From: a virus
Lineage: Duplodnaviria; Caudoviricetes
Length of the DNA: 64,000 bases
Reading direction: 5' to 3' (one strand)
Virus record (IMG/VR): IMGVR_UViG_3300045747_000505
This document shows, one piece after another, positions 1-7,313 of this stretch. Every line of letters starts with the position of its first letter. Within the stretch, counting starts at the first letter, position 1. The translations under genes were made by a program, and so were the position numbers. Below the pieces are notes generated by a model. That model was not told the DNA's origin and did no database searches. It was given only the letters and a program-made list of their open reading frames with translations.

Positions 1-1365
1 TCTGGCACCGCCAACGCTTGGGGCAACCGCGACTATGACGTCAACCTCGTGATCGGTGACAAGGCCTGGGACAAGGACGGTCAGCTGTGGTTCAACGTGT
101 TCAACAAGAACGGTTTCCTCGGCGACCGTTTGCTGACCAACTTCCAGTACAAGCCGACGCTCGACGTTCGTGCACGCCGCTACCGCTTCCGTATCCTGAA
201 CGGCTCGGTCTCCCGCTACCTGTCCATCGCGATTGTCAAGGAGCGCAACGACACCAAGGGTGAGCTCGCCGGTCAAGCCGGCAAGAGCTACGACCGCATC
301 CCGTTCCACATGATCGGCAATGACGGCAACATCCTCGAGAACGCTGTCGCCTTCGATGGCAAGGCAGATCTGGATGGCAATGGCAACGCGATCGAACACA
401 AGGGTACGCTGCCGCAGCAATCGATCGCCGAGCGCTACGACATCATCGTCGACTTCGCCAAGAACGGTATCAACCCTGGCGACAAGCTGTTCTTCGTCAA
501 CCTACAAGAGCACCGTGCTCCTGAGATCACCGCTCGCCGTGTGCCGCTCGCCGACGTCCTGTCTGGCAAGTACAAGCCGGCAACGATGGTGGATGACAAT
601 GGCGACGGCATCGCAGACCGCTGGATTGACAGTGACCCATGCGTCGGCAAGTTCTTCCAACTGAACGTCAAGGCCTACGCCGGTGTCGATCAGTCGATGG
701 ACCCTGCCAACTACGTCGCTGGCAAGACCAAGATGATCCCGCTCAAGATCGACCGCACCTCGCGCACTGACTACTCCGGCAAGCTGGCCAACGCCGTGCA
801 CCGCAGCTTCGTGTTCGGACACAGCGGTGGTACTGACGAGCAACCGTGGACCGTGAAGACCGACAACAGCTCTGGCTACAACGCCGACATGCGTCGTGTC
901 TCTGCTACTCCGCAGCTGGCCAATGCGCCGACTGCTGGTGGCACGACTCAGAAGGATGCTCCGTACGAAATCTGGCACATCAAGCTCGGCGGTGGTTGGG
1001 ATCACCCGGTCCACATCCACTTCGAAGAAGGCGTGATTCTCCGTCGTGGTGGTAAGCTGCCGCCAGCCTGGGAGACCGGTGCTCGCAAGGATGTCTACCG
1101 AATCGGCCCTGACCTTCAGGCCACCGACAGCGTCGAGGTCGCTCTGCAGTTCCGTGAGTTCGCAGGTACCTTCGTGGAGCACTGCCACTCGACTCAACAC
1201 GAGGACAACTCGATGCTGATTCGCTGGGACCTCCAACGCCCAGGCCAGACGCTGGCGATGCCAGCCCCGATCCCGACGTGGGACGGCGTGTACTACACCG
1301 GCGTGGCTACCGAGCCATCAGCCAAATCTGGTGACGCCAAGGGTCCGAGCTACAAGTCGCCGTAA
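1..1365 (+). CDS. Multicopper oxidase, C-terminal part (gene starts upstream of the window)
   Basis: Frame is open from base 1. Copper motifs HPVHIH and HCHSTQHEDNSM (T1 Cys/His/Met); YRFRILNGS cupredoxin-domain-2 motif. Confidence 0.9.
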   Translation, partial: SGTANAWGNRDYDVNLVIGDKAWDKDGQLWFNVFNKNGFLGDRLLTNFQYKPTLDVRARRYRFRILNGSVSRYLSIAIVKERNDTKGELAGQAGKSYDRIPFHMIGNDGNILENAVAFDGKADLDGNGNAIEHKGTLPQQSIAERYDIIVDFAKNGINPGDKLFFVNLQEHRAPEITARRVPLADVLSGKYKPATMVDDNGDGIADRWIDSDPCVGKFFQLNVKAYAGVDQSMDPANYVAGKTKMIPLKIDRTSRTDYSGKLANAVHRSFVFGHSGGTDEQPWTVKTDNSSGYNADMRRVSATPQLANAPTAGGTTQKDAPYEIWHIKLGGGWDHPVHIHFEEGVILRRGGKLPPAWETGARKDVYRIGPDLQATDSVEVALQFREFAGTFVEHCHSTQHEDNSMLIRWDLQRPGQTLAMPAPIPTWDGVYYTGVATEPSAKSGDAKGPSYKSP

Positions 1366-1411
1366 GGCGTGATCAACGGGGAGGCTTCGGCCTCCACTCA
1401 CTGAGCCAACC

Positions 1412-5500: not shown

Positions 5501-7313
5501 CTCCAGCGTCGGCACCACCGGCACTGGCGCTCGTGCCACGACCACCGGCTCCGTCGCCGCGCTGCTGCTGAACATCCCTGATCCGCTGAACCCTGGCACT
5601 GCTGGCGGTGGTGGCTACGACAACCTCGTGACCCTCGCAACCGTGGACGCTACCTCGACCGTCGCTGGTCTGACCATCACGCTGACCGCTCCGCCGGTTG
5701 GTGGTGTGACTGCTACGGCTGGTGCGACTGGCAAGGTCTTCGACATCACCTTCACGAACCTCGGCAAGAACTACACCTCGGCTCCGACCGTGGCTGTGAC
5801 GGCTCCCGTCGCCAACACCGTGCTCGCCGCACCGCTGGTCACAGCAGCTGCGTCGACCGATACGGCCGCTGGTGTTCCGCAAGGTCGAATCCTCGTCAAG
5901 ACCAAGGCGATTCAGGAGCTCTTCGAGCCGACCTACGGCCGACTCAACGCTACGCTGGGTGTCGAGATTCCGTTCACTAGCGCGCTGACACAGACGACGA
6001 TCCCGCTGGGTTACGTCGATCAGGCGACCGAAGAATTCGCCGACGGTGAAGTTCAGATCTGGAAGATCACGCACAACGGTGTGGACAGCCACCCAGTGCA
6101 CTTCCACCTGCTCAACGTGCAGCTGATCAACCGCGTGGGTTGGGACAACTTCGTCACGCCGCCCGAGCCGAACGAGTTGGGCTGGAAGGAGACGGTCAAG
6201 ATGTCGCCGCTGGAAGACGTGATCGTCGCTGTTCGCGCCAAGAAGCCGACGCTGCCCGGCTTCGGTCTGCCGAACAGCCAGCGCCTGCAAGATCCGACGC
6301 AGCCCGAAGGTGCGATGACCGGCTTCACGCAGATCGACCCGAACACTGGTCTGCCGGCTCCGATGACCAACATGTTCGTCGACTACGGTTGGGAATACGT
6401 CTGGCACTGCCACATCCTCGGCCACGAAGAAAACGACTTCATGCGCGCCATCAAGTTCAACGCCAACGAAGCGATGCCAATCGCCGGCGTGCTGACTGGT
6501 GTGCAAGCTGGTTCGACCGTGGCGCTGAACTGGACCGACCTGTCGCAGACCGAGTTCATGTACCGCGTCGAGCGTGCTGCCCCTGGTGGTACGGTCTGGA
6601 CGGTGCTCGACAACCTGCTGGCCAACAGCACGAAGTACGTCGACCTCACGGCCGGTCTCAACGCGAACTACGACTACCGCGTCGTCGCAGTGGGTCAAGC
6701 TGGTGAAGTCGCTTCGAACGTGGTCGCAGTTCGCTCGATGCCGTCTGGTCTCGGTGCTCTGACCTTCGTGCCGCGCACCATTGCTCCAGTGACTCTCAAC
6801 TGGGGTGACGCAACCGCCGAGACGTCGTATCAAGTTCAACGTGCCGTCAGCGGTTCGACGAACTTCGCTACGATCGCCACGCTGGCTGCCGATGCCGTGA
6901 CCTACACCGACAACACCGCCGTGGGCACCACGGCCTACGTCTACCGTGTCATCGCGCTGAACGCCTCGGGTCAAGCCGTGTCGAACACCGTCAATGTGCC
7001 GATCGTGCCGCTAGCTCTGCCTGGCGCTCCGAGAAGCCTGAATGGCAACAAGACGAACATCAACGCTTCGATGGCTCGCATCACGTTGACCTGGCGCGCT
7101 CCGACCACCGGTGGTGCAGTGGCTTCGTACATCATTCAGTCGTGCTCCGGCCCGACGAACTGCACGAACTTCACGCAGCTTGCCACGACGGCGAACCTGA
7201 CCTACACAACCGGTCAAGTCAACCGTGGAACGCCGTTCAGCTTCCGCATCCAGGCGGTGAATGCCGCTGGCAAGTCGACGACGTTCAGCAACGTGTTCCG
7301 CGTCACACCGTAA
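2559..7313 (+). CDS. Large secreted multicopper oxidase with C-terminal fibronectin type III domains (MofA/OmpB-like)
   Basis: Signal peptide; all four MCO motifs ([28 protein letters not shown]); FN3 repeats (LNWTD..YRV..Y.YRV.A) at the C-terminus; 1584 aa. Confidence 0.9.

Follow-up and report, generated by a model that had tools for sequence, protein, structure and literature searches.

Does a bacteriophage carry enzymes that oxidise metals outside the cell of its host? This question is raised by one end of a 64,000-nucleotide stretch of DNA (hereafter the window) from the IMG/VR virus record IMGVR_UViG_3300045747_000505, a member of the Caudoviricetes. A sequence-only reading of the window had recognised two different large multicopper oxidases (MCOs) flanking an SCO1-cytochrome c copper chaperone and had proposed a candidate Mn(II) oxidation module. 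Bacterial manganese and iron oxides control the cycling of trace metals, carbon and contaminants in fresh waters and water-treatment filters, and phages are known to carry auxiliary genes that act in photosynthesis and in the handling of sulfur, nitrogen and copper. The three open reading frames (ORFs) were found on the + strand where that reading had placed them, with Pfam evidence for each: the 3′ 1365 nt (454 codons plus stop) of an mcoA-like multicopper oxidase gene at 1..1365, a gene for a membrane-anchored SCO1/SenC-cytochrome c fusion of 329 aa at 1412..2401, and a mofA-like gene for a giant multicopper oxidase of 1584 aa at 2559..7313. We estimate a probability of roughly 55% that this block is a genuine accessory island in a phage of about 273 kb and that its oxidases, expressed by the phage and exported, would oxidise metal, with Mn(II) the likeliest substrate and Fe(II) the second. 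The host of the phage is probably a Sphaerotilus-Leptothrix-type betaproteobacterium of ponds and wetlands.

Family membership of the two oxidases

Judged from its sequence, the 1584-aa protein is a MofA homologue. It has the architecture of that family, namely a Sec signal peptide, a split cupredoxin core, a long Gly/Thr-rich repeat insert and a C-terminal extension with an FN3 domain (Pfam), a tail that many MofA relatives also carry. All four copper motifs are intact and lie at residues 324, 406, 1181 and 1283. The protein is 53% identical to MofA of Leptothrix discophora SS-1 (P71431) over 91% of the length, which bears out the resemblance that the sequence-only reading had drawn, and 50-56% identical to proteins of L. 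cholodnii, L. ochracea, Leptothrix sp. BB-4 and Rubrivivax; the top matches were metagenomic proteins with up to 64-67% identity. It shares the type of signal peptide, the four copper motifs, the axial Phe and the Gly/Thr insert with L. discophora MofA and its kin in Leptothrix, Rubrivivax and Rhodoferax. In an alignment with 11 family members, the copper-motif blocks were nearly letter-identical, and both the Phe at the axial position of the type 1 copper site, within a 12-residue block, and the long repeat insert were common to the whole family. These two features had been considered as oddities of the phage protein, an idea we rejected on finding them family-wide. In a tree of 112 sequences, the phage protein was placed with an ordinary branch length within a well-supported clade of 23 rows, next to a protein from a Pseudomonadota metagenome-assembled genome (MAG) and one from Methyloterricola. 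The clade also contains proteins of a Leptothrix MAG and of Leptothrix BB-4 and is sister to the clade of L. discophora MofA. The phage protein thus differs from L. discophora MofA in being phage-encoded, in belonging to the sister clade and in the phage-type TATAAT box before its gene, and its repeat insert is shorter than that of the bacterial protein nearest to it (1757 aa). The sequence-only reading had also named Geobacter OmpB as similar; OmpB and OmpC of Geobacter are large, secreted, FN3-bearing MCOs of the outer surface.

The mcoA-like gene is open at the 5′ end of the window, and the full gene begins about 1.4 kb before it. An independent contig of the Joint Genome Institute (JGI) of 9.2 kb (L002), which is 99.99% identical to window positions 1-8312 and reaches 910 bp further upstream, supplied 757 residues of the protein, including four copper motifs. 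The complete protein of 923 aa was found as a protein cluster record (P0252), identical to the contig-derived part at 757 of 757 residues. The sequence-only reading had seen the C-terminal motifs intact in the partial gene; HPVHIH and HCH-x3-H-x4-M indeed lie inside window 1-1365, and the contig adds HEHNGH and WFHDH, so that the motif set reads HEHNGH, WFHDH, HPVHIH and HCHSTQHEDNSM. Both oxidases contain the motifs of three-domain MCOs (HxHG, WxHxH, HPxHxH, HCHx3Hx4[MLF]), and both matched Pfam Cu-oxidase_2 above the cut-off. Over 98-99% of the 757 residues compared, the McoA-like protein is 64-66% identical to Pseudomonas MCOs of 929-1149 aa, and it is 67-70% identical to proteins of L. cholodnii, L. 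discophora and Sphaerotilus. Several of its matches carry the JGI name 'manganese oxidase', and a Geobacter 'copper oxidase' (65% identity) is also among the McoA-type matches. By these comparisons, the 923-aa protein is a member of the McoA family. The system of Pseudomonas putida GB-1, compared here by its description, has a larger McoA (PputGB1_2665; 1,131 aa) with an Ig-like C-terminal extension that the phage protein lacks; the common trait is the SCO1/SenC gene (PputGB1_2666) immediately downstream (PMC13689576).

Could the two proteins instead be laccase-like enzymes of the CueO or CotA kind, serving copper or oxidative-stress homeostasis or acting on organic (phenolic or sheath) substrates? 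The only solved structures matching either oxidase are those of CotA, bilirubin oxidase and CueO (CotA at 1e-28 for the MofA-like protein, bilirubin oxidase at 1.5e-19 for the McoA-like one), the top NCBIfam matches are CueO and PhsA, and one MCO from a virus has been interpreted as conferring copper tolerance (PMC12395665). However, the identity to these enzymes is confined to the cupredoxin cores, and the family scores are far below the cut-off (60 vs 525 bits). The full-length relatives are instead found in the MofA and McoA families, recognisable by size, inserts and SCO1 partner, and not among the copper-detoxification laccases that the sequence-only reading had named as the grouping that would speak against it. 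We therefore regard a laccase-like role as improbable.

The SCO1-cytochrome c fusion and the mosaic structure of the block

The fusion protein encoded between the two oxidases (Pfam SCO1-SenC E 1.6e-19, Cytochrom_C E 4.9e-6) comprises an N-terminal hydrophobic helix, an SCO1/SenC domain and a C-terminal mono-haem cytochrome c. The thioredoxin-like domain, the CxxxC motif, the distal His and the membrane anchor of SCO1/SenC copper chaperones are all present. Residues C79/C83 of CxxxC, H169/H172, C237-x2-C240-H241 of the haem-binding CxxCH and the axial M297 are invariant in comparison with the bacterial orthologues, which are 61-66% identical in the nearest MAGs and 48-52% identical in more distant classes. 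In seven bacterial loci from several classes, an mcoA-like gene is directly followed by such a fusion gene. The pair is often tandem-duplicated and occurs in MAGs of several classes as well as in Methyloglobulus. A comparable pattern holds in Pseudomonas, where conservation of the mcoA operon among Mn oxidisers is limited to mcoA itself and the SCO1/SenC gene that follows it, and where SCO1 has been proposed as a copper chaperone (PMC13689576). The SCO1 partner of the phage is fused to cytochrome c, as in Burkholderiales and other MAGs and unlike in the GB-1 system. By gene order and sequence, mcoA and the fusion gene are a conserved bacterial two-gene module, and the fusion protein serves the McoA-like oxidase as a putative copper chaperone and redox partner, in line with the chaperone role assigned to it earlier.

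In bacterial genomes, mofA has other neighbours. In the bacterial loci examined (L001, L004 and L006), mofA stands in arrays of mofA, mofB (FKBP), mofC (cytochrome c) and SCO1 that adjoin type II secretion genes. The locus of the nearest MofA relative (P0004) holds the mofA array together with maltose-transport and DAHP-synthase genes and is therefore plainly chromosomal. The phage mofA lacks the adjoining mofB, mofC, SCO1 and type II secretion genes and is followed by a terminator and a homing endonuclease gene. Conversely, no mofA was found within 8 kb of the mcoA-SCO1/cytochrome c pair in any bacterial locus examined. The phage block is thus a mosaic of an mcoA-sco1/cytochrome c module and a lone mofA, unlike the bacterial loci examined. 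One further locus (L003) was taken up as a second copy of the trio and rejected, as its third gene codes for an additional McoA paralogue instead of MofA and its codon usage is that of bacteria, which makes it a bacterial locus. A separate observation concerns two Pseudomonas-like contigs from soil metagenomes (L085 and L086), in which a gene for a 929-aa McoA-family paralogue lies directly 3′ of a gene for a MopA-type animal-haem-peroxidase (3643 aa) and is followed by no SCO1 gene, so that two types of Mn oxidase adjoin in one locus.

Residence of the block in a phage genome

The nearest relatives of all three genes are bacterial, and the GC content of the block is slightly above the window mean. 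Both facts would fit bacterial DNA misassembled onto a phage contig, or the edge of a prophage. However, the junction between mofA and the phage genes was bridged without a mismatch by Logan contigs from three other pond or wetland metagenome runs (covering 6417-12437, 6417-8308 and 6418-7943) and by the JGI contig L002. In the same three runs, the contig pieces of the block had depths of 25-32, 10-15 and 3-7, equal to those of the phage genes (about 27, 10 and 4-6). Summed bin depths over mofA were higher, with a spike at 6004-6670 that stems from conserved MofA sequence common to contigs of other organisms. On the downstream side, the continuity check proposed with the sequence-only reading therefore turned out in favour of an intact contig. 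Upstream of the block, the evidence is indirect: the full McoA-like protein and the 937-aa product of a neighbouring gene are both recorded on a contig of 273,537 bp. An exact 40-mer scan of metagenome contigs for DNA upstream of the block gave no match.

The codons of the block also argue against misassembly, being like those of the phage and unlike those of the bacterial homologues. The GC content at third codon positions (GC3) is 0.71-0.79 in the three block genes, 0.73 in 32 other window genes and 0.82-0.94 in the bacterial homologues. The relative synonymous codon usage correlates with that of the 32 other genes at r = 0.95 for both oxidase genes and at r = 0.82 for the short SCO1 gene, in agreement with the genome-typical codons noted earlier. 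Together with the phage motifs TATAAT and GAACCTA that flank mofA (see below), these data have already largely refuted misassembly, to which we give almost no credence.

Are the genes then merely passengers, recently captured and without a role for the phage? Three related IMG/VR phage fragments share the NMNAT/NAMPT backbone and lack the oxidases, so that the block is dispensable for the lineage. In one of them (L008, 106 kb, CheckV completeness 29%), an ABC-importer operon lies upstream of NMNAT, where the genes encode an SBP-OmpA fusion, the permease and the ATPase of an ABC system, and a TAXI-type receptor. From this comparison, the block looks like an insertion into a conserved jumbo-phage backbone. 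Against a recent capture without function stand the drift of the codon usage to that of the phage, the intact catalytic and export motifs throughout, and the pattern of substitutions. A variant of the McoA gene from another run (L005, 92% identical) has phage-like codons, and the synonymous divergence (dS) between the two phage-type variants is 0.42 with a dN/dS ratio of 0.11; likewise, 12 of the 14 population variants listed in mofA are synonymous. Since the motifs for catalysis and export are intact and the genes are under purifying selection, the block genes appear to be in use, and we consider the passenger explanation very unlikely.

Transcription signals around the block

The elements between the genes separate the block into two units. 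A GC-rich hairpin with a TTCG loop (1380..1395, + strand), read from the sequence between mcoA and the SCO1 gene, has no T-run and was not called by the terminator scan; it probably acts as an RNA hairpin within the operon and not as a terminator. An intrinsic terminator with a 13-bp stem and a T-run (2426..2455, +) closes the mcoA-SCO1 operon. Upstream of mofA lie a GAACCTA motif (2408..2414, +) and a TATAAT box (2499..2504, +), the latter 55 nt before the start codon. Behind mofA follow another intrinsic terminator (7342..7365, +; 10-bp stem and T-run) and the promoter-type elements of the next gene, GAACCTA at 7374-7380 and TATAAT at 7417-7422 (7374..7422, +), so that mofA is flanked by two copies of GAACCTA.

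Both motifs, identified by counting, are over-represented in the window. TATAAT occurs 15 times against 3.07 expected, with 14 of the 15 copies on the + strand, as are nearly all credible genes of the window, and mostly just 5′ of genes, among them mofA and the NAMPT, helicase, CCA-enzyme, homing-endonuclease and tRNA genes. GAACCTA also occurs 15 times (2.9 expected; 11 copies on the + strand), and the copies inspected are intergenic. Based on this distribution, the TATAAT before mofA is a phage promoter-type element and the elements at 7374-7422 mark the return to the phage backbone. A standard sigma-70 promoter scan found none upstream of the genes.

Elsewhere in the window, we observed a two-part intergenic element on the + strand, in which (CT)GAACCTA precedes TATAAT by about 30-35 nt (17789/17829, 26576/26615 and 41117/41157), a spacing larger than that of sigma-70 promoters. 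In a second class of elements, CGTTACA takes the position of GAACCTA (19515, 48238, 54063 and 59654). The two classes probably represent two classes of phage promoters.

Proposed function and substrate

We propose that the island arose as a bacterial mcoA and SCO1-cytochrome c module joined to a stand-alone mofA cassette that has a promoter box of phage type and a terminator of its own. During infection, the block would be transcribed from phage promoters of the TATAAT type, and phage regulation presumably replaces the sigma-54/MnxR control of the McoA system. The signal peptides would export the proteins, the membrane-anchored SCO1 domain could supply Cu(I), and its cytochrome c domain could provide reducing power. 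The MofA-like enzyme would leave the cell through the type II secretion system of the host and would have to rely on host MofB and MofC as well. Outside the cytoplasm, the oxidases would reduce O2 to water with electrons taken singly from a metal, most likely in the step from Mn(II) to Mn(III/IV), with Fe(II) as the second candidate. If the exported oxidases do oxidise metal in this way, infected cells would keep up or even boost the formation of metal oxides. Candidate benefits for the phage include the energy or redox balance of the host, protection from reactive oxygen species and an altered mineralised sheath. We infer when the block is expressed, how copper is delivered, by which route the enzymes are secreted, what they oxidise and how the phage benefits; the assignment of Mn(II) in particular derives from homology.

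The sequence-only reading had called MofA and McoA established Mn(II) oxidases. For McoA this is fair, as genetic work in P. putida GB-1 points to oxidation of Mn(II) as well as Mn(III) (PMC13689576). For MofA it is overstated, as the role of this protein is contested and its gene could be deleted from L. discophora without abolishing Mn oxidation (bioRxiv 10.1101/2022.11.10.515945). The word 'pathway' in that reading was also generous: the oxidases and the chaperone are present, and mofB, mofC and type II secretion genes are lacking.

The retained Mn oxidation of the mofA mutant is one of several points that weigh against our interpretation. Neither mofB (FKBP), mofC, a mofA-linked SCO1 gene nor type II secretion genes were found among the 40 other window ORFs scanned. 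In the signal peptide of the McoA-like protein, SRQ takes the place of the twin arginine found in several bacterial homologues, so that the export of this protein could differ from theirs. The viral genes next to the block were read directly on its downstream side, no capsid or terminase gene was found in the 64 kb of the window, and all four sequencing runs matched to the window are DNA by guessed type. Finally, the substrate of MofA in L. ochracea may be Fe (PMC11412304).

This last point leads to a ferroxidase interpretation, in which the phage-borne enzymes are functional and serve mainly to oxidise or detoxify Fe(II) for a host of the iron-oxidising Leptothrix type. In iron-rich, manganese-poor waters, mofA ranks with the most strongly expressed genes of L. 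ochracea and encodes the sole MCO of its kind in these genomes (PMC11412304), and L. ochracea proteins are among the matches of the phage MofA. However, the Fe-oxidising activity of MofA is itself putative, the clade of the phage protein is nearest to non-ochracea Leptothrix and MAGs, and the McoA family has direct genetic evidence for the oxidation of Mn(II) and Mn(III) (PMC13689576). We thus consider mainly ferroxidase activity unlikely, if still worth serious attention, and favour metal oxidation with Mn(II) as the first substrate.

The surrounding phage backbone

The first backbone gene past the block encodes a GIY-YIG homing endonuclease (7484..8137, +; phrog_314 E 7.8e-29; NCBIfam group I intron endonuclease), and a 55% identical homologue precedes the NMNAT gene in a related phage contig (L009). 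Downstream of the block, the window contains four homing endonucleases, NMNAT-Nudix, NAMPT, a PurZ-like protein, a UvrD-type helicase, a CCA-adding enzyme and many PHROG families, which agrees with the claim that the block sits among phage genes. For two window proteins, the nearest cultured relatives are phages (45% identity to the T4-like Caulobacter phage Cr30 and about 43% to various phage helicases). Searches of the related IMG/VR fragments with Gp23 and Terminase_6N gave no match, in fragments that are 21-29% complete and with a Gp23 control that matched nowhere.

Several features of this backbone are worth recording in their own right. NMNAT-Nudix (NadM-like; 8134-9279) and NAMPT (17893-19413) make up a two-step NAD salvage pair, which three related jumbo-phage fragments from IMG/VR share with 50-73% conservation; there, NMNAT and NAMPT adjoin or are separated by less DNA than in the window. 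The adenylosuccinate-synthetase homologue at 12214-13431 belongs to the phage PurZ-type family (phrog_1211, E 3.9e-60), which raises the possibility of 2-aminoadenine (Z) DNA. The window also carries 26 tRNA genes and a transfer-messenger RNA gene (tag ANEANFRLAA) at 21927-43915 and 54552-54626, with GIY-YIG homing endonucleases interspersed. Among them are a tRNA with the CUA (amber suppressor) anticodon (22817-22891) and a call with a four-base anticodon (37334-37406); a gene with an RF-1/PCRF domain is present as well. One of the 40 window ORFs has a PEP-CTERM sorting motif (Pfam E 5.9e-7), which implies an exosortase host and would fit a host that forms exopolysaccharide or a sheath.

Two genes for secreted FN3 proteins of 440 and 937 aa lie at 13593-17742 (GC 0.65, phage-like codons). 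Relatives of the 937-aa protein (42-58% identity, about 950 aa) form multi-copy tandem families in Leptothrix discophora, Leptothrix sp. BB-3 and the MAG lineages with the nearest MofA, and the pair is absent from the related phage fragments L008 and L010. By its relatives and codons, the pair looks like a second host-derived insertion, possibly associated with the surface or sheath and possibly tied to the oxidases. It is conceivable, though we put this forward tentatively and with less confidence than in its opposite, that the two oxidases, the chaperone and these Leptothrix-type FN3 proteins 6 kb downstream of them form a working extracellular metal-redox toolkit that turns infected cells into virus-programmed producers of Mn and Fe oxides.

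Comparison with other viruses

The sequence-only reading had anticipated a very unusual module for a phage, and no comparable module was found in the phages searched. Among 50,697 GenBank phage records, no MofA- or McoA-type gene was found, and a tblastn search with the MofA-like protein matched by its FN3 tail only. A blastn search of the same phages with window positions 1-8000 gave no match, and a megablast search with the part from 40 to 64 kb returned tRNA-sized matches only. In the 2.9 million contigs of IMG/VR, nothing was found with the MofA-like protein as a single query or with an alignment of McoA, and an alignment of MofA returned one match only, with 31% identity, on a contig from a giant-virus bin. 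This match (IMGVR_UViG_GVMAG-M-3300021074-12_000001, 12.8 kb, positions 599-4951) extends over residues 105-1326 of the MofA-like protein and may either stem from bacterial DNA contaminating the bin or be a viral MCO in its own right.

Our literature search returned nothing on phage Mn oxidases or on jumbo phages of Leptothrix; the only virus-encoded MCOs were MCO1, from viruses that infect ammonia-oxidising archaea in soil (PMC11849493), and an MCO for copper tolerance on an airborne viral operational taxonomic unit (PMC12395665). These earlier cases are likewise host-type multicopper oxidases carried as auxiliary genes. They are, however, single genes from other MCO families that were read as serving copper acquisition or tolerance, in contrast to the two giant enzymes of Mn-oxidase families with a dedicated chaperone in a jumbo phage, probably of a betaproteobacterium. 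Both oxidases are ordinary members of known families; the novelty lies in finding them in a phage, in their mosaic arrangement and in the part in metal oxidation that this implies for viruses.

Implications

The enzymology of the Leptothrix group and the substrate of MofA are under debate, which is why such phage genes would matter. The phage carries a compact, naturally pruned set, mcoA-sco1/cytochrome c and mofA without mofB and mofC, for heterologous tests of the enzymes' requirements and activities. If the wider metal-redox toolkit considered above is real, this cassette would be a minimal natural system with which to settle the substrate of MofA. The maintenance of two oxidases and a chaperone under purifying selection would imply that metal oxidation pays during infection, and the influence of viruses would then extend to mineral formation. 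Viral infection would, with such a toolkit, directly drive biomineralisation in freshwater iron and manganese mats.

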